Assembly: GCA_964387885.1 (NCBI GenBank)
Contig: CAYLYZ010000016.1
Coordinates: 3,352 to 67,351, forward strand
Direction of reading: 5' to 3'
Length of the DNA stretch: 64,000 nucleotides
Source of the DNA: an uncultured bacterium
GTDB taxonomy: Bacteria > Electryoneota > AABM5-125-24 > Hatepunaeales > Hatepunaeaceae
A model generated the notes under the pieces. That model saw nothing but the letters and a program-made list of their open reading frames with translations, was not told where the DNA came from and made no database searches. Positions 11,101 through 46,532 of the stretch are shown here, one piece after another (the stretch's first letter is position 1; every line of letters begins with the position of its first letter). Made by a program: the position numbers and the translations under genes.

Positions 11101-11733
11101 TCAAACAAACTCCGGCTCAATCAACTCATCCCCATCACGCAAGAAAACGATTCCAAGCATTATCTGAAATGCAATCATAAATACCAGACCCAATGGCATT
11201 AGAATTATTGAAGCAAGACAAATTGAAGCTACAATCTGTGTATATGCCAATGGTTTCAGCAATCCGCTTAATCCCCGTTCGAGTTTCAATAGTTTTAAAC
11301 CGAATACAATACCAGCAACAGCTAACGGAATACTCAAAATAATCACCAATGATGTAAATATCACACTCAAGTTTATACTATCGGACGGAATTATTCCTAA
11401 AGTGTTCATTGTCCTGACGAACAATCCTATCGAGGTTAATATCATACTTCCGAAAATGATGAAAATAATCAATGTATCTACACGATGAAATTCATATCGT
11501 TCATTTAGCAACTGCTTAAAACGGAAGAACGCAAACAGGGTGATTGCAGTTTCTGCAATTGTAATAAACACATAAGGAATAATGAGTATACCGAGTTTTT
11601 CCGGTTTAATGTCCAACAACATTCCCATAATAATTTCCGGAAAAATCATAATTGCCCCAGTTATGGCCATCCATCCGGCTAATGTATATTTTGAGCTGTC
11701 TATCTCAGCTCGATCAAATGAATTGCTTTCCAT
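11101..11733 (-). CDS. multi-pass membrane protein (DUF2975-like), paralog 2
   Basis: GGAG RBS before the ATG at 11733. Five to six hydrophobic helices. The C-terminus VFLRDGDELIEPEFV parallels that of its paralog. Downstream of a YozG-type HTH gene. Confidence 0.5.
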   Translation of the reverse strand: MESNSFDRAEIDSSKYTLAGWMAITGAIMIFPEIIMGMLLDIKPEKLGILIIPYVFITIAETAITLFAFFRFKQLLNERYEFHRVDTLIIFIIFGSMILTSIGLFVRTMNTLGIIPSDSINLSVIFTSLVIILSIPLAVAGIVFGLKLLKLERGLSGLLKPLAYTQIVASICLASIILMPLGLVFMIAFQIMLGIVFLRDGDELIEPEFV

Positions 11734-11804
11734 GCTAATACTCCTCAGACAAAGTTTCACATTTTTGGCAGTTAGCCAATAATACACGTAAACAGATTAG
11801 TGAA

Positions 11805-12446
11805 TTATACAAATTCAACTTCTCTCGGTTCTTCAATTCCCCGCATCAACAAAATTCCCAATAATAACATAAACGTCATGTTGAAAACAGCTGGAATAAC
11901 AAGAAATACTGCCGAGAGAAGAATCAATCCAAGCACCAGGGACTTAGAAATGAAAATGAATGCCATTGATTTCAGAAGAAGATTCACCTCACCTTTCAGA
12001 TTCAGCAGTTTTATCCCGAAAATGATTCCGATCACTGCCACTGGGATTGCCACACCAATAATTGTCAGGAATGAAACAACATCGGTTGTCATATTCAGTG
12101 TAACAAGAATTGTCATAAGCAGTGCAGTTGTGGTGAGTGCGAGTTCACCCAGGAGAACGAGTATTACAAGCGTATCAACTGTATTAGAACCAAAGGTTTT
12201 ATCTATAAAGTTCTTGAACCTTATAAAGACAATAGTAGTTAGTATCATTTGGACCAGGCTCGTGGCGGATAGAACCATGGCAATGACTATAAAACTGGCT
12301 ATGCCAAGGCCGATAACTCCAACCAGGATGATGTTTATACCGATAATACAGGCAGCAACAATCGACATATATCCTGCATTTGAGAATTTTCTCAGATCAG
12401 ATTTTTCACGATTGCCCGTCGAAGCTGAAGCAGAATTTGGTCTCAT
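11805..12446 (-). CDS. multi-pass membrane protein (DUF2975-like), paralog 1
   Basis: AGGAG RBS. Same topology as 11101..11733, with C-terminus LLMRGIEEPREVEFV. The mirror ORF 11800..12465 (+) is judged antisense noise. Confidence 0.5.
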   Translation of the reverse strand: MRPNSASASTGNREKSDLRKFSNAGYMSIVAACIIGINIILVGVIGLGIASFIVIAMVLSATSLVQMILTTIVFIRFKNFIDKTFGSNTVDTLVILVLLGELALTTTALLMTILVTLNMTTDVVSFLTIIGVAIPVAVIGIIFGIKLLNLKGEVNLLLKSMAFIFISKSLVLGLILLSAVFLVIPAVFNMTFMLLLGILLMRGIEEPREVEFV

Positions 12447-15761: not shown

Positions 15762-15916
15762 GGATTAACTCGTATTTTCTTCACTACGAAATCGTATCTT
15801 TTCATTATACACAATGAAAACCTTGTAAACAAGGGAGTGTTTGGGTGCTGGGATATTCCAACAATCCGGGGAGTGCGGATATATTTATCCGCATGTTTTC
15901 TAAATCTTCAAGTAGT

Positions 15917-15976
15917 GTCAGGTGTCCTCGTCTGACGAAATAACAAAAGCTTAAGTGTCAGGTGAGGACACCTGAC
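15917..15976. repeat. GTCAGGTG hairpin doublet
   Basis: GTCAGGTGTCCTCGTCTGAC, spacer GAAATAACAAAAGCTTAAGT, then GTCAGGTGAGGACACCTGAC. Confidence 0.7.
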
Positions 15977-16081
15977 ACCACTCATTGGGCATTCGGACGA
16001 TCTCCTGCGCGGGAACGACGTGCTTCTGCAAGAGTTGAAAATATCAAAGAACCTGTCTTAGACTGTTGCCATTTTTCTTAT

Positions 16082-16110
16082 GGCAGACGTGGGCGTCTGC
16101 CAGCGCGATT
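16082..16110. repeat. GGCAGACG-NNN-CGTCTGCC hairpin with AGCGCGATT tail
   Basis: GGCAGACGTGGGCGTCTGCCAGCGCGATT. Further copies lie at 22527-22556 and 46504-46532. Confidence 0.7.
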
Positions 16111-16191
16111 GCTGCAAACGAGAGGGCATCCCAGCATGAATGCGGTAGACGAGGGGGTTTGTCAGCATGATTATGGCATTATCGAAATTTA

Positions 16192-16423
16192 TGATATATA
16201 CGTCTTTATTGTTGTCAATATACTACATTTCTCCCCAAAAGTCAAGTTTCATTGCAGTGCACAGGAAAGATCAGGGATAGCATAAATTATCGTCACATCG
16301 TCACACTATTGGCTGAAAGCACCTGTGGGTGGTGGATTGAGGGTGTGACGGAAATGTGACGGAAGTGATGAAACGGATATTCACAACGGATTAAGGGTAT
16401 TAAACGGATTTTTCGTCGTCGTG
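16192..16423. repeat. copy 1 of a ~230-bp non-coding module (promoter + GTGACG iterons)
   Basis: Aligns by eye with 16868-17089 from TGATATATACGTCT to CGTCGTG. Contains CGTCAC x2 (16291, 16299) facing GTGACG/GTGACG/GTGATG (16345, 16356, 16365). Confidence 0.7.
16217..16245 (-). promoter_or_regulatory. near-consensus sigma70 promoter inside repeat copy 1
   Basis: Minus strand: TTGACT (16245-16240), 17 nt, TATATT (16222-16217). Confidence 0.5.
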
Positions 16424-16867
16424 TATTTTTGTTTCATTTGAATATTCAGGGAGTCGTGGTCGGAAACTTTTTCCGACGGATTTTTCGATCAAATCACAAT
16501 TGATGTCCCAATGAGATTGCAACCAACTTCCGTAAATCGTAGCCCGATGTCCTGAATCCGGGAGCTTGTAGTTTTTTGTGTTACAATTCCTTAGACCCAA
16601 CATCACGTCATTTCCACGAAGAGCCTGTCCTCGACCTAATCGGGGAAGGGAACCCAGAAAATACGCTCAACCTCTCCCCCTCGCTTGCGGGGGGGATTAA
16701 AGGGGGGGGAGTCGTAGGTCGGAAATTTTTTCCGACGGATTTTTCGATCAAATTACAATTTATGTCGAAATGAGATTGCGACATCCTTCCTGGATTCCTG
16801 CCTTCGCAGGAATGACGTAGTTTTACAAGAATTGAATATTTCAAAAGTCTCGGTGATGCCTAATTTG

Positions 16868-17089
16868 TGATATATACGTCTTCATGTTGTAAATATACAA
16901 CATTTCTCAGCAAAAGTCAAGTTTCACCGTAGTGCACTGTAAAGATCGGTGATAGCATAAAAATCGTCACTTCGTCACCCTTTTGGCGGAAAGCGGTTGT
17001 GGGTGGGGGATTGAGGTGGTGACGAAAGGGTGACGAAAGTGACGGAATGATGTATTCACAACGGATTCAACGGATTTGACTTCGTCGTG
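16868..17089. repeat. copy 2 of the ~230-bp non-coding module
   Basis: Same layout as copy 1: CGTCAC x2 (16965, 16973) facing GTGACG x3 (17019, 17030, 17039). Confidence 0.7.
16892..16920 (-). promoter_or_regulatory. near-consensus sigma70 promoter inside repeat copy 2
   Basis: Minus strand: TTGACT (16920-16915), 17 nt, TATATT (16897-16892). Confidence 0.5.
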
Positions 17090-17164
17090 CTGCCCTTCGT
17101 TCCGGTTAATTGATTTTTTCGTCGTGGTGTTGTGGTGAAGTGGTAAATTGGTACGGTCTCGAAA

Positions 17165-17927: not shown

Positions 17928-17951
17928 GTAGGGGCACGTCGCCACGTGCCC
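17928..17951 (+). repeat. GTAGGGGC-type REP (ACGT variant), left of the KAP gene
   Basis: GTAGGGGCACGTCGCCACGTGCCC. Confidence 0.75.
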
Positions 17952-18077
17952 TTGCTCTCTTTTTAGATCACTCTCAGTTTATGTAATTAACACTAATTAC
18001 ACTATTTAAGACCGGAATCTTATCCCACCGAATAATTCATGTAATTAGAATTAACAACAGTAGTATCCTAGACTCTT

Positions 18078-18186: not shown

Positions 18187-21100
18187 TTAATCAATTTTCC
18201 GATCAACTCGAACATGAATGTCAGAGTTCTCCAGATTATACTCTACAGGATACTCTGCAATCGGATCTTTCGGCGGAGTTCCCTGGTCATATTTCCTGAA
18301 GCTAAACCTTTTTACTATGGGGATCCATTTATGGAGGGTTTTTATTTTGAGGTAACAGCCAGGAAGTCTGTAATCACCTTCTTTTTCAGGTATTTCAGGA
18401 TTACTAAATATTTTCCTAATTGCAATCATTAAGTCGCTCGGATCTGGACATTTGGTTGATTGAGGTGCATACCACGAGCCTGTGAAATTCTTCTCTCCAC
18501 GTTTAAACATCCCATCAACCTCATTAAAGAAATCTCCTGCATCATCGGGAAATCCACTTACAACAGCCAAAAGGAGAAGAATAGCCTCAAAATCACCTTC
18601 ACCATTTTCATGAACGCCCTCATCGAAACTATTCTTCTGAGTCTCAGGATCACTCGTCTTGATTATTCTATAAACATTAACGAAACGTTTAACCTGACGA
18701 GGAGAATGCCCGATTATCCCCGTCAGGGATTTCATCATTTTTCTTTCTTTGTCTGAGAGTTCAAGGGTTTTGGGATTTAAGTCAACCACAGGATCATGTT
18801 CGAGCTTCTCATCATTACTCCCGCTTAGAACAGTCACACCAGATCGCAATTCTGATACAGCTTGCCGGAAGCCGTTTATTACTTTTTTTGTGATTTTCTC
18901 TGGCTCTTCTTTAGGTTCATCAGCCTCAGTGGGTAGGGGTTCTTCTTTAGGTTCAGGAATAGCAGGTTCAGGTTTGGATTGTTGTGTTTTTTCTTTCCCA
19001 ATTAGATCATCTATTAAGTTCCTTGCCCCTTTTGAATCCATCGGTCTTAATCGAAATGGGATCTGAAAAATCTTTTCAAGATAGTTCTGTACACTTGCTC
19101 CGATTTCTTTTTTACCTTTTATAGTTCTGTTTTGCCCTGGTTCAACGAGTAAGTTTCTATATTGAGTTACCAGTGATTTTGTAACCCACCGGGTATCAAC
19201 TCCAACAACCACCGCAAACAGAGGTAATGCGAGCAAAAGGTGTATAGCCTGTAGTACTGCTACAACTCTTTTTGGTGGACACCGATCAAGATCGTCTATA
19301 TAGAGAATAATTCTATCTATTGAAGGAAGGTTCGGATCGTAACTTTTCTCGCTTTTTTGCTCTTTCATCAGGTCATCAACACGCTTGAAATCCTCTCTTA
19401 TTTGACTCAGAATACCTAAGTTCTTCCTGTAATCGTCAGTGGAAATTCGTTCTTTAATAAATTCTTTTAACAGGCTTTGAGGTTCTAAATCCTTTAATTC
19501 TTTTTCGATACATCTTATTTGTTCATCTATTTCAGTCAAATCTTTGTGAACATCCTCTATGCTGCTATACTGAGGATCTTCCAAATTTACCATCTTTTCA
19601 GTTGTTATTCTATAAGCGTTCTCCAATAAGGGGACCGCCTTAAGAACTTTTTTGAAGTTCTTTATTACCCAGGCAAGTATTGGACTATTTAGTACTAATA
19701 GGGGAACTGAACGAATGAACACACCGATATCTAAGTAATTCCAGACCATTACAGAAAGAATAGTGAGAACAATACCAATTGCATAGAGGAGTTTGTTCTC
19801 CTGGAGGGACTTCAATAAAACTCTTAATATCCCAACAACTCTTCCGGAATTTTTGACTAAATCATCTAATACGGGAATAATATCTTCTGAAATATTTATT
19901 AATCTGTCGTTTCCAAGTACTTTTCCAGCTGCTCTTAACAAAGGTCCGACTTCATCATCAATTAATATGTTCTTTAATTTTTCTGATTTCCTTTTTGACG
20001 ATTGATTTAAGTTATCTACTTCATTCTGTTTCTCTTCAATTTCTCTCTGTGTTTCCTTCTGCTTCCTGAGCTTACCATCAAGTCTGATCAATAATTTATC
20101 CCTGAGTTGCTGATCTTTGCTCTTATCATCGGAAGTTGCAATATAAAGATTCTCGAAAATGTGGTTAACCAGACTCGCCCAGAGGTCAGCTTCCATATAA
20201 TGCCATGCATTGAATTCTATTTGAACAATATTCTCGTAATATGCAATCTCATTTTTTTTTGATTTCTTAACCTCACCTGCAATTTTAGTGATTCTTTGGA
20301 TGAGTTTTTCCATAAAAAATGATTTTCCCATACCCCAATCACCAAATAGTCCTATTGCAAGCGGTAGTTTGGTATCTTTTGCAGCAAGAATTGATGCAAA
20401 AGCATTTATTTCATTATCAAGCTCTAACTGATCCTCCCCTTTAATATCGTCTGCCTCAATGTGGGTTAGTGATGAAGGTTCAGGAGTGATCCTTATTTGT
20501 TCAGGTTTTTTTGAATTTGCTTTTAGCTCTATTTCAAATGGATTAGCTGGGAAAAATCCCTCTGTGTTCATTTCTCCACACAAGAAAGGTCTGACTTCTC
20601 CCAACCGTGAAGTTGTGTTAATTTCTACAATGCTGAAATTATAATGCTTGCCATCGGAAGCTTCTAACAACCCGGATTTAACTACCGGGATACTAGGTAT
20701 AACGAAATCGAGAAATGCACTATCACTAATCCCATAAATGTCATTGTTAAATGATGAGTGAATAATACATGCATTATTAATAATATAACTTAAACTCTCT
20801 CGATCAGCATGATGTAGAGAATTATAATCATGATGAAATAAGGCAATTGTAAGATCTGCATCTTTATTCATTTTCTCAAAGGACTCTTTAACTAACTCAG
20901 GACCTAATGCAAGTCTTTGCTGTTTATCTTTCCCATAGCTATTTCCATGGAAAAGAGATGAATTCAATCCTATGATATTTATAAAGATATCTTTGTCGGC
21001 CTTATTGAGTTTAATATTTTCTGTGAAATTAAGTAAATACGGATCTGAATTGGTGTATTTAAAGTTATCTGTGAATTTATAGAAATGGCTGAATTCATTT

Positions 21101-21540
21101 CTTTTTTCCAACATTAATTCGGGGTTATTGATTATCCTGTTTAATGTAATATCATCATCAAAATCATACCTGTTCTCATTCGAGTCTTCATTTTGAACTT
21201 GAACCATATCACGGGGACCAGGAACTATGTAGGTGGGAATGAATTTATTATCTGTACTTAGATTTTGAGCGAGAAACTCCAAAGCTTGGGAATATTCAGA
21301 GCCCGTTCCACTTCTCGCAATATCACCGGTAATCAACACAAAATCTAATGCATTCTCCGCTGTAATTTCAGCGAGGATTTTTTTCAGACTGATCCTGCTA
21401 TTATCCTGTGATTCAAGTTTCATTTTCCTATGATTATCGTGTGGCCAGAACAATCCATCCTGTTCCGTACTTCCTTTAAATCTCAGATCTGATAAATGAA
21501 GATAGCGAATTTTGCTGTTGTCTAAATTTTGATTTTCCAT
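18187..21540 (-). CDS. fusion protein: N-terminal calcineurin-like metallophosphoesterase-like domain + KAP-family P-loop NTPase with inserted TM hairpin and coiled coils
   Basis: MPE-like motifs: YLHLSDLRF, VLITGDIARSG, YIVPGPRDM, IALFHHD. KAP Walker A is GLFGDWGMGKSF (about 20323-20346). TM pair is LLYAIGIVLTILSVMVW / VPLLVLNSPILAWVI (about 19660-19791). Walker B is ILYIDDLDRC (about 19282-19305). C-terminal KAP motif SPRQVKRFVNVY. Confidence 0.85.
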   Translation of the reverse strand: MENQNLDNSKIRYLHLSDLRFKGSTEQDGLFWPHDNHRKMKLESQDNSRISLKKILAEITAENALDFVLITGDIARSGTGSEYSQALEFLAQNLSTDNKFIPTYIVPGPRDMVQVQNEDSNENRYDFDDDITLNRIINNPELMLEKRNEFSHFYKFTDNFKYTNSDPYLLNFTENIKLNKADKDIFINIIGLNSSLFHGNSYGKDKQQRLALGPELVKESFEKMNKDADLTIALFHHDYNSLHHADRESLSYIINNACIIHSSFNNDIYGISDSAFLDFVIPSIPVVKSGLLEASDGKHYNFSIVEINTTSRLGEVRPFLCGEMNTEGFFPANPFEIELKANSKKPEQIRITPEPSSLTHIEADDIKGEDQLELDNEINAFASILAAKDTKLPLAIGLFGDWGMGKSFFMEKLIQRITKIAGEVKKSKKNEIAYYENIVQIEFNAWHYMEADLWASLVNHIFENLYIATSDDKSKDQQLRDKLLIRLDGKLRKQKETQREIEEKQNEVDNLNQSSKRKSEKLKNILIDDEVGPLLRAAGKVLGNDRLINISEDIIPVLDDLVKNSGRVVGILRVLLKSLQENKLLYAIGIVLTILSVMVWNYLDIGVFIRSVPLLVLNSPILAWVIKNFKKVLKAVPLLENAYRITTEKMVNLEDPQYSSIEDVHKDLTEIDEQIRCIEKELKDLEPQSLLKEFIKERISTDDYRKNLGILSQIREDFKRVDDLMKEQKSEKSYDPNLPSIDRIILYIDDLDRCPPKRVVAVLQAIHLLLALPLFAVVVGVDTRWVTKSLVTQYRNLLVEPGQNRTIKGKKEIGASVQNYLEKIFQIPFRLRPMDSKGARNLIDDLIGKEKTQQSKPEPAIPEPKEEPLPTEADEPKEEPEKITKKVINGFRQAVSELRSGVTVLSGSNDEKLEHDPVVDLNPKTLELSDKERKMMKSLTGIIGHSPRQVKRFVNVYRIIKTSDPETQKNSFDEGVHENGEGDFEAILLLLAVVSGFPDDAGDFFNEVDGMFKRGEKNFTGSWYAPQSTKCPDPSDLMIAIRKIFSNPEIPEKEGDYRLPGCYLKIKTLHKWIPIVKRFSFRKYDQGTPPKDPIAEYPVEYNLENSDIHVRVDRKID

Positions 21541-21644
21541 TTATTTCTCACATTTCGAACATTAATTGATAACTTTTGAATGTACGATTGTACATCCTGA
21601 TTTGTCAAGGTGTTTTGGTAAGTATTATTTCAATCTGGGAACGA

Positions 21645-21667
21645 GGGCACGTGCGACGTGCCCCTAC
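21645..21667 (-). repeat. GTAGGGGC-type REP (ACGT variant), right of the KAP gene
   Basis: Plus strand GGGCACGTGCGACGTGCCCCTAC, inverted relative to 17928. Confidence 0.75.
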
Positions 21668-21677
21668 AATTGGGTGA

Positions 21678-22373
21678 TTAATGCACTTTCTGCCAGCAGC
21701 AATTTTTGAATTTCTTGCCGCAGCCACAAGGGCAGGGCTCGTTTCTATTTAACTTCTTTTGGGGTGTTTTGGATTCCTTTGCTTTACGTATAATCTCTCG
21801 GTAGGGCAGCCAGAATCTGTAGATTTCCGGAACTGAAGCTCGGATCTCTGCGACCCACCGGTCATGCGGGATCTTCTTTAGCTCGGGATCATTTTTGAGA
21901 TCCTCCCAACCCTCTTCTGTGCCATATGTTGCTATGGCTGCCAGAAGTGCATAGTGTTTCTCATGCTTAATAAGCGGTTCCCAGGAGTCGCCTGAAATTA
22001 CAGTTCCTGTCATAAATCCCATACACCACTCGTCAACAATTGTATAAGTCTTCCCTTCAACTGTTCTTTCATAGAACATCGGTTTATATGAATCCGGATT
22101 GGTCAAAAATTTTGCAGCTGTTATGTTATAATGAGTCATGATCAATTCGAGGATTCTCTGCATTTTTTCGGTAGATACCATCTTCGACTCCCGCTCAGAT
22201 TTGGGGCGGAAAACATAATTTAACCAATCATATGGCTGAGTCGTTTCGGGACCAATCAGAATTGCTGCCAGGAACCCATCCAGCATCGAGATATCCATGC
22301 AATCCTCGGGTGATTCCTCGGAGATCAGGAAATCTTCCAGTTCTTTGTAATCTGCTTCAGATAATTCAAACAT
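21678..22373 (-). CDS. YecA/UPF0149-family protein with C-terminal SEC-C zinc motif
   Basis: N-terminal DISMLDGFLAAILIGPE (UPF0149) and C-terminal NEPCPCGCGKKFKNCC (SEC-C). Confidence 0.8.
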   Translation of the reverse strand: MFELSEADYKELEDFLISEESPEDCMDISMLDGFLAAILIGPETTQPYDWLNYVFRPKSERESKMVSTEKMQRILELIMTHYNITAAKFLTNPDSYKPMFYERTVEGKTYTIVDEWCMGFMTGTVISGDSWEPLIKHEKHYALLAAIATYGTEEGWEDLKNDPELKKIPHDRWVAEIRASVPEIYRFWLPYREIIRKAKESKTPQKKLNRNEPCPCGCGKKFKNCCWQKVH

Positions 22374-22468: not shown

Positions 22469-22526
22469 GGAGGGATCCGGGCTACTTACTGATTTTCCGG
22501 GATGCGTCGCTTCCAGGTTACATACT

Positions 22527-22556
22527 GGCAGACGAAGGCGTCTGCCAGCGCGAATT
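22527..22556. repeat. GGCAGACG hairpin family
   Basis: GGCAGACGAAGGCGTCTGCCAGCGCGAATT. Confidence 0.7.
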
Positions 22557-24205: not shown

Positions 24206-24601
24206 ATGGCAGGTCGAAAGTCTCCTACATTTACAGAGGTTGAGCTCGAATTCATGCAGATATTCTGGGAGCATGGTGAGATGTCTTCTGAAGATATTCA
24301 GAATATCCTCAGCACCCAGGGTCGTGAATTGACTGACGGAACCGTAAGGAAGGTACTCGGGATTTTGCTTAAGAAGGGATACCTTGAACGCGAACGCCGT
24401 GGGCGGAGTTTCTATTATGTTCCCAGCGTGGTCAAGGAGCAGGCGAATGGTCGGATGATTCAAGATCTGCTCAATCGTGCTTTCTCCGGATCGATACCAA
24501 ACATGGTCGCTACCCTACTCGACAATCGTGATATTAACTCTGATGACATCAAGGCAATTAAGGGTATGATCGACGAGTATGAAAAAGGAGACCAGGAATG
24601 A
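24206..24601 (+). CDS. BlaI/MecI/CopY-family winged-helix transcriptional repressor
   Basis: 131 aa. LTEVELEFMQIFWEHGEMSSEDI...TVRKVLGILLKKGYLERERRGRSFYY is the Penicillinase_R pattern. Confidence 0.85.
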   Translation: MAGRKSPTFTEVELEFMQIFWEHGEMSSEDIQNILSTQGRELTDGTVRKVLGILLKKGYLERERRGRSFYYVPSVVKEQANGRMIQDLLNRAFSGSIPNMVATLLDNRDINSDDIKAIKGMIDEYEKGDQE

Positions 24602-26370
24602 GCGCAATGTACTTCCTCAACCTCGCTGACAACGTTGGATTTGCCCTGATAAGGTTCATCGTTTCACTTTTCTGGCAATCTTCGATTGTATTGCTCGGTG
24701 CATTTGTAATAATGAATGTTCTCCGTAATCACCGAGCAGATGTCAGGCACAGAATACTAACAGCGGTCTTTCTTTCCATACCCTTGATCCCGATATTATC
24801 CTGGTTCGCTGGTTACATAGGTGTACCTCAAGCTTCTTTATTTATACCACCTGAATTTGCTACGATTTCTGCAGAGTCAGCACCCACCGAACCGTTGAAA
24901 AATGAGATCATTCAGACGGTATATACAAGCTCCCAATCTGAAATTATACCGGGATTATTCAATTTTCCGTTCGCATTAACCGCACTTGTCCTGATTTCTG
25001 TCGGAATAGCAATGTTAAGTATTGTGTTTGCCGGTAGAAGACGCATTTCTCTACTTTTGAGGAATGGAGCTGAACTTACCGATAGTAACTTGATATCGAT
25101 TTTCAAACGAGGGGCAAAAAGACTTGATCTACAAAAAGAATTCACTCTGGTCAGTTGTTCGGAAATTGATACTCCTTTCACTTCAGGAACTCGAAAACCA
25201 GTGATATTTTTGCCCACTGAAATTAGAGATAATCTATCCAATAATGAAATTTCGGACATTGCTCTGCATGAACTCGCACACATAAAAAGATATGATTCCC
25301 TCTGGTTGACAATGATATCGGTTTTCAGGGCGTTTATCTTCTTTAATCCTCTGGCATGGTTGGCAGCAGGACAGATATTGAAACTGACCGAAGAAGCTTG
25401 TGATGACATGGTCATACGATCGACAGGGAAACCAGTTGATTATGCGAGAATGCTCACTCGGATCGCAGAGAAGTTATCAAACAGGAGATTAATAATGGAG
25501 CTTTCAGCCGGAATAGTACTTTCACGAAAAGCATTCATAAAGAGAGTCAGGAACATATTGTCAAGTAAGGGAAGAGCTGTTCGGAAGTTTACGATGATTC
25601 AGTGTACAGCCATGATCCTTGACCTAATGCTTGTTTTCGGAATAGCAATTGCCGCTCCACTTAATGATAAGACTGATGTGAAAGTAATGAAGGCGACTGC
25701 AGACAAAGCCGGATTGCAGGAGAAGGGTGAGATACTAAATACCGGTATGGATCTTCAAACTGTGACGAGTATTCTTGGCTTCGAGCCTGAGATCAAAGAT
25801 GTGTATACTCCCACGCGTGACATCTATGTCTGGAAGGAAAAGGGCTTTTTCAGCACAAAGCACACCCTGATTGTTGTCTTTGAAAACGATAAGGCCTGGA
25901 TGATAAGTAGTGTAACCGGTAATGTTAAAGACATAAATAAGCATGTGGCAAATGCTGAAGAATCTTCGCGTCGGGCGAAGAAAGTGGAAGTTGACGGCGA
26001 GCTTATACCCATGCACGAGGCGGATAACATTTGGGTTGATGTTCCTCATGCGATGAAACGATTGATAGAATCAGGTGAAGAGGAATTGGTCCTCGACCAG
26101 AAGACAATACAACTATTCGACAGCATCGAAATGAAGATGCCGTTCGAAAAAGTCGCCCAACTGCTGGGTGAACCGACAAGACGGAAGATAAATAAGAGAA
26201 GTGAATCTTACATCTGGGATTTCGGTGAAATTAAATTCAAAGTCAACTTAAAGAAGGGATTTGTCCTGACAAAGGAATTGAAAGCCCCTCATTTTAACCT
26301 GTTTGTAGAAAAAGAGCATTGGACTGTCCACGGCAGTAAAAACAAAATCACTGTTGAAGTTAGAAATTAG
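24598..26370 (+). CDS. BlaR1/M56-family membrane metalloprotease-type signal transducer
   Basis: 4-nt overlap with the repressor gene. N-terminal TM helices. HEXXH motif ALHELAHIKRYD. Large uncharacterised C-terminal sensor region. Confidence 0.8.
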   Translation: MSAMYFLNLADNVGFALIRFIVSLFWQSSIVLLGAFVIMNVLRNHRADVRHRILTAVFLSIPLIPILSWFAGYIGVPQASLFIPPEFATISAESAPTEPLKNEIIQTVYTSSQSEIIPGLFNFPFALTALVLISVGIAMLSIVFAGRRRISLLLRNGAELTDSNLISIFKRGAKRLDLQKEFTLVSCSEIDTPFTSGTRKPVIFLPTEIRDNLSNNEISDIALHELAHIKRYDSLWLTMISVFRAFIFFNPLAWLAAGQILKLTEEACDDMVIRSTGKPVDYARMLTRIAEKLSNRRLIMELSAGIVLSRKAFIKRVRNILSSKGRAVRKFTMIQCTAMILDLMLVFGIAIAAPLNDKTDVKVMKATADKAGLQEKGEILNTGMDLQTVTSILGFEPEIKDVYTPTRDIYVWKEKGFFSTKHTLIVVFENDKAWMISSVTGNVKDINKHVANAEESSRRAKKVEVDGELIPMHEADNIWVDVPHAMKRLIESGEEELVLDQKTIQLFDSIEMKMPFEKVAQLLGEPTRRKINKRSESYIWDFGEIKFKVNLKKGFVLTKELKAPHFNLFVEKEHWTVHGSKNKITVEVRN

Positions 26371-37890: not shown

Positions 37891-38008
37891 AAAAGGCAGT
37901 TTTTTGTATAATCGAACAAGGGCACGTGCGACGTGCCCCTACATTGTGCGTTATTAATTACTTATATCGGAGGTAGAGGTGGAATATATCCCGAACATTG
38001 GGTGCCCG
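37891..38008. repeat. duplicate of the 3-prime end of the O-antigen ligase-like gene plus its REP
   Basis: Aligns by eye with 38127-38243, including GGGCACGTGCGACGTGCCCCTAC and the last ~18 codons of the gene. The copies are offset by 236 bp. Confidence 0.65.
37920..37942 (-). repeat. GTAGGGGC-type REP (ACGT variant)
   Basis: GGGCACGTGCGACGTGCCCCTAC. Confidence 0.75.
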
Positions 38009-38155: not shown

Positions 38156-38178
38156 GGGCACGTGCGACGTGCCCCTAC
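38156..38178 (-). repeat. GTAGGGGC-type REP (ACGT variant)
   Basis: GGGCACGTGCGACGTGCCCCTAC, 12 nt below the stop of the ligase-like gene. Confidence 0.75.
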
Positions 38179-46291: not shown

Positions 46292-46503
46292 GGGCACTCG
46301 TAGTGCATTTCAATTTTCCACAGATATCATTTTACAGAAGTTGTTGTTATTTAAGAAATCCGCTATCCAGCGGATTAACAAGCAGGAATGCTTGTTCCAC
46401 CTACATCAAATTCTCTGACAATCTGGATCGCAAGTATGACGGTGCGATGATAGTCTCTATCTGCACACGAAATAACACTTACCGCAAAGATTCAGAAATA
46501 AAT

Positions 46504-46532
46504 GGCAGACGAGGGCGTCTGCCAACGCGATT
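46504..46532. repeat. GGCAGACG hairpin family
   Basis: GGCAGACGAGGGCGTCTGCCAACGCGATT. Confidence 0.7.

Follow-up and report, generated by a model that had tools for sequence, protein, structure and literature searches.

DS-8 and DS-9A are anti-phage systems identified with DefensePredictor (Science 2026, PMC13092281). The former joins a metallophosphoesterase (MPE) to a NACHT nucleoside triphosphatase (NTPase) and the latter combines an MPE with a HAD phosphatase; mutation of the predicted catalytic residues of the MPE abolishes defence by DS-8 and DS-9, and mutation of the NACHT ATPase abolishes defence as well (PMC13092281). According to Kaur et al. (eLife 2021, PMC8195603), a KAP ATPase can displace the STAND NTPase behind TIR or calcineurin-type effectors, and an eLife 2020 paper (PMC7159879) describes inactive enzyme domains as recurrent effectors in conflict systems, perhaps as decoys or dominant-negatives; no calcineurin–KAP fusion is mentioned in the passages of these papers that were consulted. 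Among KAP proteins, Tmn (Gao et al. 2020) is a stand-alone anti-phage NTPase with two transmembrane (TM) helices in its P-loop domain, and its NTPase motifs are needed. In EF_KAP, phage defence requires Walker B together with a fused region, and the KAP domain controls the fused module (PLoS Biol 2026, PMC13552941). A regulatory role at membrane-associated complexes was proposed for KAP NTPases by Aravind et al. (2004), as cited in later work. Here, we describe a gene, termed MPE-KAP, in a window of 64,000 nucleotides (the whole stretch of DNA analyzed) from an uncultured bacterium (contig CAYLYZ010000016.1), in which an MPE domain with substituted catalytic residues precedes a KAP NTPase. In our reading, to which we assign a probability of roughly 0.6, its product is a stand-alone, horizontally acquired, inner-membrane-anchored KAP NTPase of an effector-swapping clade, i.e., a single-polypeptide conflict protein of the anti-phage type. 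The gene and its two main parts are as follows.

18187..21540, minus strand: whole open reading frame (ORF) of the pseudo-MPE–KAP NTPase, with an ATG start, 1117 aa and a stop codon
20533..21513, minus strand: calcineurin-like MPE-fold domain (aa ~10–336) of the DS-8/DS-9A-type family, catalytically degenerate, recognized by Pfam, NCBIfam, phmmer and AlphaFold with Foldseek
18661..20469, minus strand: KAP-family P-loop NTPase chassis (aa ~358–960), recognized by Pfam PF07693 and 445 homologues

A metallophosphoesterase fold with substituted catalytic residues

The N-terminal domain passes the profile threshold of Pfam Metallophos (PF00149; aa 12–198, E-value 1.4e-5, 26.1 bits vs a cut-off of 21.5) and has the MPE fold, and over aa ~4–258 it is also matched by the NCBIfam models DS8_antiphage (NF053861, 4.5e-12) and DS9_1 anti-phage phosphoesterase (NF053862, 5e-9). 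A word-indexed search with the domain alone returned no matches; an exhaustive phmmer search with aa 1–340 recovered 411 homologues at 27–37% identity (best E 2.6e-26; 58 at E ≤1e-10), which bear the canonical MPE motifs LHLSDLHF, ITGDLA, VPGNHDV, FFHHP and TGHLH. The partners of these homologues are NACHT, NB-ARC or nSTAND NTPases with TPR or FGE-sulfatase domains, and other homologues are shorter proteins with response-regulator or further partners.

The AlphaFold (AF2) model of the domain has a mean predicted local distance difference test (pLDDT) score of 75 and a predicted template modeling score of 0.80; the core strands reach pLDDT 85–94, and confidence is low at aa 265–297, directly after the position of motif V. 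Compared by Foldseek with solved MPE structures, the model matches Bacillus subtilis YydB best (1e-14), followed by matches to GpdQ, Rv0805 and SMPDL3A (to 1e-5) and also to acid sphingomyelinase. At rank 7, the pseudo-phosphatase GAP50 is a significant match; entry 6tny_B, a polymerase delta holoenzyme, ranks 16th with an E-value of 0.057, which is not significant. Matches to the domain in BFVD are generic MPE folds, all weaker than that to the cellular YydB. The recovery of both the MPE and the KAP fold, on which the preliminary description of this gene had made its reading depend, was therefore obtained with Pfam, NCBIfam, phmmer, and AF2 with Foldseek.

The four MPE motifs that had been picked out by eye are all present in the expected order, i.e., YLHLSDLRF (aa 13–21), VLITGDIARSG (68–78), YIVPGPRDM (104–112) and IALFHHD (232–238). 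To compare catalytic residues, the query was aligned with ~145 members of the MPE family and nine catalytic positions were scored across the 146 sequences, with the following outcome for each motif.

21481..21489, minus strand: MPE motif I, D18-L19-R20 (family D-x-H), H20 to R; H in 123/131 family sequences
21322..21327, minus strand: MPE motif II, G72-D73, kept, an invariant column
21208..21219, minus strand: MPE motif III, G108-P109-R110-D111 (family G-N-H-D), N109P (N in 144/145) and H110R (H in 143/145)
20830..20835, minus strand: MPE motif IV, H236-H237, kept in the alignment (family H-H)
20746..20757, minus strand: MPE motif V position, S262-S263-F264-N265 (family G-H-x-H; G in 140, H in 138 and H in 134 of 145)

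Five near-invariant catalytic residues are thus substituted, namely H20R, N109P, H110R, H263S and H265N, and D18 and D111 are kept, matching the family Asp. The preliminary description had counted three replaced ligands; its substitutions and its manual registration of the motifs stand in the alignment, and the His pair of motif V raises the count to five. Read against the five-motif di-metal ligand set of PF00149, the domain presents D-L-R, G-D, G-P-R-D, H-H and S-S-F-N, in which, besides the catalytic His in motif III, four metal ligands out of seven are replaced. Since these ligands and the catalytic His are lost, the domain, judged by the alignment, cannot form a canonical di-metal site or perform canonical catalysis. 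Such a pattern is rare in the family, as 130 of the 146 aligned sequences have zero substitutions at the nine positions and five changes occur only in the query and one other sequence. Overall, the domain is the most divergent of the 146 members (mean identity of 24.6% vs a family median of 35%) and keeps 24 of 38 conserved MPE positions, including the non-catalytic family motifs GLNS and LALG, plus HH.

A comparable case lies outside the window. The protein P0246, of the same MPE family, carries D73N, N109E, H110R, H263P and H265S, and TIR and NACHT domains come after its MPE domain. Going by these residues, an immune-type NTPase carries a dead MPE at its N-terminus in P0246 as well, and independently, so that loss of catalysis would not be unique to the MPE-KAP protein; placed before TIR-NACHT, it hints at a recurrent non-catalytic role for the DS-8-type MPE domain.

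The KAP chassis and its exchangeable N-terminal domains

The remainder of the protein is a KAP NTPase, matched by Pfam KAP_NTPase (PF07693) over aa 375–960 at 1.5e-31 (110.2 bits vs a cut-off of 20; profile positions 2–289 of 293), with intact Walker A and Walker B motifs and inserted TM helices. Its elements are listed below.

20320..20343, minus strand: Walker A, GDWGMGKS (aa 400–407; Lys is K406), invariant across 80 homologues
19651..19794, minus strand: TM hairpin (aa ~583–630) in the insert that separates the Walker motifs, from hydropathy and AF2 helices
19279..19305, minus strand: Walker B, LYIDDLDRC (aa 746–754), with D749, D750, L751, D752, R753 and C754 family-invariant
18670..18702, minus strand: conserved KAP C-terminal motif PRQVKRFVNVY (aa 947–957), with P, R, K, R, N and Y (near-)invariant
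18190..18660, minus strand: C-terminal tail (aa 961–1117) with VLFLLA... and W-P-V-RYSFR motifs, from phmmer (45 matched stretches in family C-termini) and consensus

Walker B and PRQVKRFVNVY read exactly as first quoted; Walker A is also as quoted, at a position one residue further on, which makes its Lys K406 and not K405. The two Walker motifs are 343 aa apart, in keeping with the earlier estimate of ~340, and the pair of hydrophobic helices that had been placed at aa ~584–627 is found as segments at aa 584–602 and 605–623 (peak hydropathy 1.9 and 1.72), which the AF2 model renders as helices at aa 583–602 and 611–653. The whole 343-aa insert is modeled as all-helical with long helices (pLDDT 74). 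TM calls on the insert were made from hydropathy only, and by this measure 80 of the 81 aligned sequences, the query counted, show one or more TM-like peaks within it. The tail that follows PRQVKRFVNVY is indeed present, with ~160 aa where ~130 had been given, and, far from being uncharacterized, is by its sequence conservation a part of the chassis.

The chassis consensus comprises GLFGDWGSGKSFFM, IVQIEFNAWHY, DYRKHLG, LYIDDLDRCPP...VLQAVHLLLAFPLFVVVV.VDARW, DYLEKIFQIPFWL, GRSPR.VKRFVN.YRLIK and a terminal W.P.V.RYSFR. The query keeps all family-invariant columns and 102 of the 109 positions with ≥90% conservation (94%), and by this conservation its NTPase part is very probably active. No solved structure resembling the chassis was found in the PDB, either by a sequence search with the whole protein (no match at E up to 1) or by Foldseek with the KAP model, which gave nothing significant (best E 0.045, weak AAA+/RFC/RdrA-like).

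The whole protein, used as query, retrieved 445 homologues at 30–35% identity (E down to 3e-104). The listed KAP homologues align only from query aa ~332–360 to the C-terminus, with E-values from 3e-104 to 4e-79 and 55–72% query coverage, and their N-termini are unrelated both to the MPE domain of the query and to one another. Among the 120 homologues listed, which form the top-ranked part of the hit list, the N-terminal domains include ~22 TIR, 8 Clp_N, 4 SEFIR, 3 PNP_UDP_1, 2 SIR2, 2 LTD and 2 protein kinase domains, along with single instances of lipase_3, patatin, PF04185 phosphoesterase, EVE, trypsin, DUF2278 and WD40. An N-terminal extension of at least 150 aa is present in 111 of the 120 and is nearly absent in a few complete proteins. 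The query therefore combines homology over the whole chassis, tail included, with a variable N-terminal module, here of MPE fold, as the other members of this effector-swapping clade do, and such a shared chassis with swapped N-terminal modules is characteristic of conflict or defence proteins. In one homologous locus (L020, 4185–10258), a 916-aa PNP_UDP_1 protein is encoded directly before a PNP_UDP_1–KAP homologue, the same effector type being present on both. The Metallophos gene adjoining a TIR–KAP homologue (L021) was considered as a related MPE and set aside, as it is SbcD/Mre11-like and unrelated.

The preliminary description knew of no MPE–KAP architecture, and no second fusion appeared among the top-ranked homologues inspected. 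None of the 150 best of the 411 homologues of the MPE domain has a KAP part, none of the 120 best of the 445 KAP homologues matches the hidden Markov model of the MPE-domain family, and Pfam Metallophos is absent from the 40 homologues that were re-scanned. A scan of 185,579 species genomes yielded relatives of the KAP part only, at 27–31% identity, and one short segment at 76%, none of which spans aa 1–337; a scan of JGI metagenome contigs with the MPE domain yielded no close relative. In viral contigs, one weak KAP match was found and the chassis is nearly absent. A phage origin, or mimicry of a specific phage protein, was considered and finds no support in this single match or in the generic BFVD folds.

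Composition, distribution and surroundings of the gene

The MPE-KAP gene is AT-rich, with a GC content of 36.6% (31% at third codon positions, GC3) against 42–50% in its neighbours and a comparison value of 42.6%, and by GC it belongs to the lowest 0.3% of same-size windows. The earlier remark on its AT-richness relative to the neighbours therefore applies to the whole gene, and the spot counts of 20/60 and 26/60 given with it are exact. This foreign composition points to horizontal acquisition, and the gene looks horizontally acquired. The identical protein with identical neighbours occurs on nine contigs from at least five samples, and the gene is thus stable in one uncultivated population. 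Within it, the 330-codon frame of the MPE domain is free of stops in DNA of 34% GC, for which the random expectation at such composition is 3e-12. The 90%-identity cluster of the protein consists of the protein itself and a 216-aa fragment only, and its representative is that fragment, P0272, a C-terminal piece with one E-to-Q difference from the full-length protein; consequently, the full-length protein, and above all its MPE domain, is invisible to searches of cluster representatives.

The immediate neighbours of the ORF are a YecA-like gene and a convergent GNAT gene. The former and the signals around the ORF are as follows.

21678–22373, minus strand: gene of a YecA-like UPF0149 and SEC-C protein, upstream of the ORF on the same strand with a gap of 137 bp
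21642..21667, minus strand: second, inverted copy of a REP-like hairpin, between the YecA-like gene and the ORF, from a REP-like element match
21579..21608, minus strand: promoter-like TTGACA-18-TACATT within the 137 bp that precede the ORF, weak, such sites being no commoner than in shuffled sequence
17928..17955, plus strand: REP-like hairpin GTAGGGGCACGTCGCCACGTGCCC, downstream of the ORF, also terminator-like for the convergent GNAT gene
37928–37942 and 38164–38178, minus strand: two further REP-like copies, from REP-like element matches

The YecA-like gene was suggested earlier as a possible partner, and this pairing is not upheld. Its GC content is host-like (43.8%, GC3 47%), a REP-like hairpin and the promoter-like site lie between it and the ORF, and UPF0149 occurs in none of eight homologue neighbourhoods (0/8). 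Along its full length, the YecA-like protein is matched by the PADLOC candidate PDC-S12 (4.5e-53), and it is above the cut-off for NCBIfam PRK10396, which we take to be the Escherichia coli YecA model; the PDC-S12 match probably reflects, at the sequence level, YecA-family homology only, and PDC-S12 calls may simply flag ordinary YecA genes. The eight neighbourhoods have no common partner gene and range from ordinary to defence-flavoured or flavoured by mobile genetic elements (HipA/CHAT, SEFIR-TIR with transposases, an extracellular contractile injection system, the second PNP protein). The preliminary description had proposed a check of such neighbourhoods for defence islands; the locus itself lies outside one. 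No tRNA, integrase or known RNA was found near the MPE-KAP gene, and no QueC-like or TatD-like neighbours are present. Further neighbours are cargo proteins of the type IX secretion system (T9SS) and a BlaR/BlaI-like pair; the T9SS sorting domains encoded nearby suggest that the bacterium belongs to the FCB group.

The REP-like element, (A)ATGTAGGGGCACGTCGC(C)ACGTGCCCT(T/C)GTT, consists of a GTAG head and a palindrome and has four copies in the window, where ~0.5 loose matches are expected. An inverted pair of these bounds a 3.7-kb single-gene segment that holds the MPE-KAP gene; the hairpins were considered as the ends of a mobile cassette, an interpretation not adopted in view of the further copies at 37.9 and 38.2 kb. 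Another dispersed palindrome, TGGCAGACGnnGGCGTCTGCCA, is found at 16081–16102, 22526–22547 and 46503–46524 (0 expected by chance), and two of its copies bracket the block of GNAT, MPE-KAP and YecA-like genes. Between HflX and GNAT, a 1.4-kb gap (15762–17147) contains no convincing gene (ORFs of at most ~107 aa) and no Rfam match up to E 1; it harbours GTGACG-rich direct repeats of ~240 bp, 675 bp apart (16186–16423 vs 16862–17089, 81–92% identity), and a 74-bp repeat pair at 16458 and 16717 (88% identity). Elsewhere in the window, the BlaI/BlaR-like pair (24206–26370, plus strand) consists of a Penicillinase_R repressor followed by a Peptidase_M56 sensor and lies between a T9SS-tagged FG-GAP protein and other secreted proteins. 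At 11101–12446 (minus strand), tandem paralogous multi-pass membrane proteins of 228 and 213 aa are encoded beside a 70-aa HTH_26 (XRE-type) gene, and apart from HTH no Pfam family was matched by this group.

Interpretation and comparison with described systems

The protein is a candidate for a defence role on the strength of its architecture and of analogies in the literature. The proposal of a single-gene conflict system in the preliminary description, drawn like ours from architecture only, is in line with a clade of swapped effectors and no conserved neighbour, and the eight homologue neighbourhoods lacking a common partner, together with the swapped N-terminal domains, fit such a system. 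In the mechanism we propose, the P-loop domain would act as an NTP-dependent switch or oligomerizer at the membrane, set off by an invader cue; an NTPase switch has been proposed for Tmn, and a Walker B requirement has been shown in EF_KAP (PMC13552941). The pseudo-enzyme domain would be retained as a folded, non-hydrolytic module, which might bind, without cleavage, a nucleotide, a phosphorylated ligand or a partner protein, and thereby serve as a sensor, sponge or dominant-negative. Several observations weigh against this interpretation. A ligand-binding role of the domain is a speculation by analogy, and many non-catalytic conserved MPE positions differ as well, so that a general relaxation of constraint fits equally. 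Close relatives are absent from the genome and metagenome scans. The locus lies amid housekeeping genes (HflX, acyl-CoA dehydrogenase, BatA and an aminoacyl-tRNA synthetase gene with Pfam tRNA-synt_1b), with no recognizable defence genes near the MPE-KAP gene and no defence island. In the literature, no experiments were found on the MPE-KAP protein or on any member of its KAP clade.

These points bear most directly on the question of whether the domain is a selected pseudo-enzyme or the remains of an active one. The gene could be a disarmed relic, i.e., a formerly active MPE–KAP defence protein whose effector was inactivated, for example under selection against autoimmunity or by drift, and which is now inert or being lost. 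The loss of many conserved non-catalytic positions along with the five catalytic ones in the most divergent member of the family would follow from such decay, as would the low model confidence at aa 265–297 just after the dead motif V, a singleton lineage without relatives in the very large databases searched, and a locus outside any defence context. Neutral decay is hard to reconcile, however, with a full 1117-codon frame that is intact and identical in at least five samples, with a chassis conserved at 94% of its constrained positions, or with a domain whose core is modeled at pLDDT 85–94 and whose family motifs GLNS, LALG and HH are kept; a stop-free frame of 330 codons in 34% GC DNA is likewise not expected under neutrality. 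Since this frame is stop-free and confidently folded in AT-rich DNA despite ~75% divergence, a selected pseudo-enzyme is favoured over a decaying relic, and we regard the relic as unlikely. The narrower proposition that the pseudo-enzyme still recognizes the ligand of DS-8/DS-9 and works as a membrane-anchored, NTPase-gated sensor or sponge, which draws on analogy with these systems, is more doubtful still.

The same residues admit another reading, in which the MPE-like domain is a real effector enzyme of altered chemistry, using a single metal (held by D18, D73, D111 and H236/H237) or Arg assistance (R20, R110) to act on a nucleotide or a phospholipid. A number of the acidic and His ligands do remain, the fold is preserved, and Arg, which binds phosphate, specifically takes the place of two His residues; however, both metal sites are down to two ligands out of four, and motif III lacks its catalytic His. 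Moreover, MPE-fold proteins with comparable ligand losses, such as Vps29, Plasmodium GAP50 and the DNA polymerase B-subunits, are non-catalytic scaffolds, and we hold altered chemistry to be quite improbable. A housekeeping membrane NTPase working with the YecA-like (UPF0149/SEC-C) protein in a process such as secretion or protein quality control is suggested by the position of that gene on the same strand at a gap of only 137 bp, by the housekeeping neighbourhood and by the proposal of Aravind et al. (2004) that KAP NTPases regulate membrane-associated complexes. The two genes nevertheless differ in composition (43.8% GC and GC3 47% vs 36.6% and 31%), they are separated by the REP-like hairpin and the promoter-like site, UPF0149 is found in 0/8 homologue neighbourhoods, and the PDC-S12 match of the YecA-like protein is probably just homology within the YecA family. 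With TIR, SIR2, PNP and patatin, which are not housekeeping modules, in the N-terminal position of homologues, this reading appears very improbable indeed.

If the MPE-KAP protein is functional, an immune-type NTPase chassis could use pseudo-enzymes besides toxic enzymes as its variable module, its range of outputs would be widened to binding, sequestration or decoy roles, and the protein would provide a natural catalytically dead control for the metallophosphatase effectors of DS-8/DS-9. Were the sensor or sponge reading true, it would be the first inactive domain of an effector family to work as the input or output module in a bacterial immune NTPase made of a single polypeptide; were the gene a disarmed relic, it would illustrate the ordinary decay of a horizontally acquired defence gene. 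The whole KAP clade, with hundreds of members, TIR, SIR2, PNP, lipase and patatin domains at the N-terminus and a conserved TM hairpin, is a more valuable lead than this singleton gene.

Compared with DS-8 and DS-9A, the MPE-KAP protein has a homologous metallophosphatase domain with an SMPDL3A-like fold, placed likewise N-terminal to a P-loop NTPase. The NTPase is here a KAP with a TM hairpin, in contrast to the NACHT of DS-8, and the domain that holds the essential predicted catalytic residues in DS-8/DS-9 has five near-invariant catalytic positions substituted. Accordingly, it falls short of the DS-8 model (NF053861; 44.5 vs 790 bits, profile positions 20–219 of 994, no NACHT and substituted catalytic residues) and of the DS-9A model (NF053862; 35.5 vs 420 bits), its neighbours being YecA-like and GNAT genes and not a HAD phosphatase. 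The effector–NTPase proteins described computationally by Kaur, Iyer, Burroughs and Aravind resemble it in their variable N-terminal effector (TIR or calcineurin-type) and central NTPase, for which KAP is possible. That work deals chiefly with STAND-FGS, with an FGE-sulfatase-like sensor, and with ternary systems of multicellular bacteria, whereas the MPE-KAP protein is devoid of FGS, TPR or another C-terminal sensor repeat; in their stead are the helical insert of KAP, a TM hairpin and a conserved tail.

With Tmn, it shares a single-gene organization and a KAP P-loop with two TM helices between the Walker motifs, a feature examined and found here; it differs in being much larger, in its N-terminal enzyme-fold module and different conserved tail, and in its membership of a distinct effector-swapping clade. 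PADLOC matches at E up to 1 were QatA, PDC-S20 and PifA only, with no model named Tmn, although PADLOC-DB 2.0.0 presumably holds one. KAP P-loop homology also connects the protein to QatA (4e-24 in NCBIfam, 1e-18 in PADLOC), PifA (1.5e-4) and EF_KAP. It is not a QatA of a QatABCD system (NF041923; 85.2 vs 600 bits in two partial stretches, with qatBCD not nearby), and, unlike EF_KAP, whose functional region is at the C-terminus, it carries its enzyme fold at the N-terminus. Vps29, GAP50 and the polymerase B-subunits are alike in that a calcineurin-like fold is kept, metal ligands are lost and the use is one of scaffolding or binding; they belong to another sequence family and context, and none is fused to an NTPase chassis of immune type. 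Both modules, the principle of effector–KAP fusion and inactive effectors are already in the literature (PMC8195603, PMC7159879, PMC13092281); what is new here is an MPE head, catalytically dead by its residues, on a KAP chassis.

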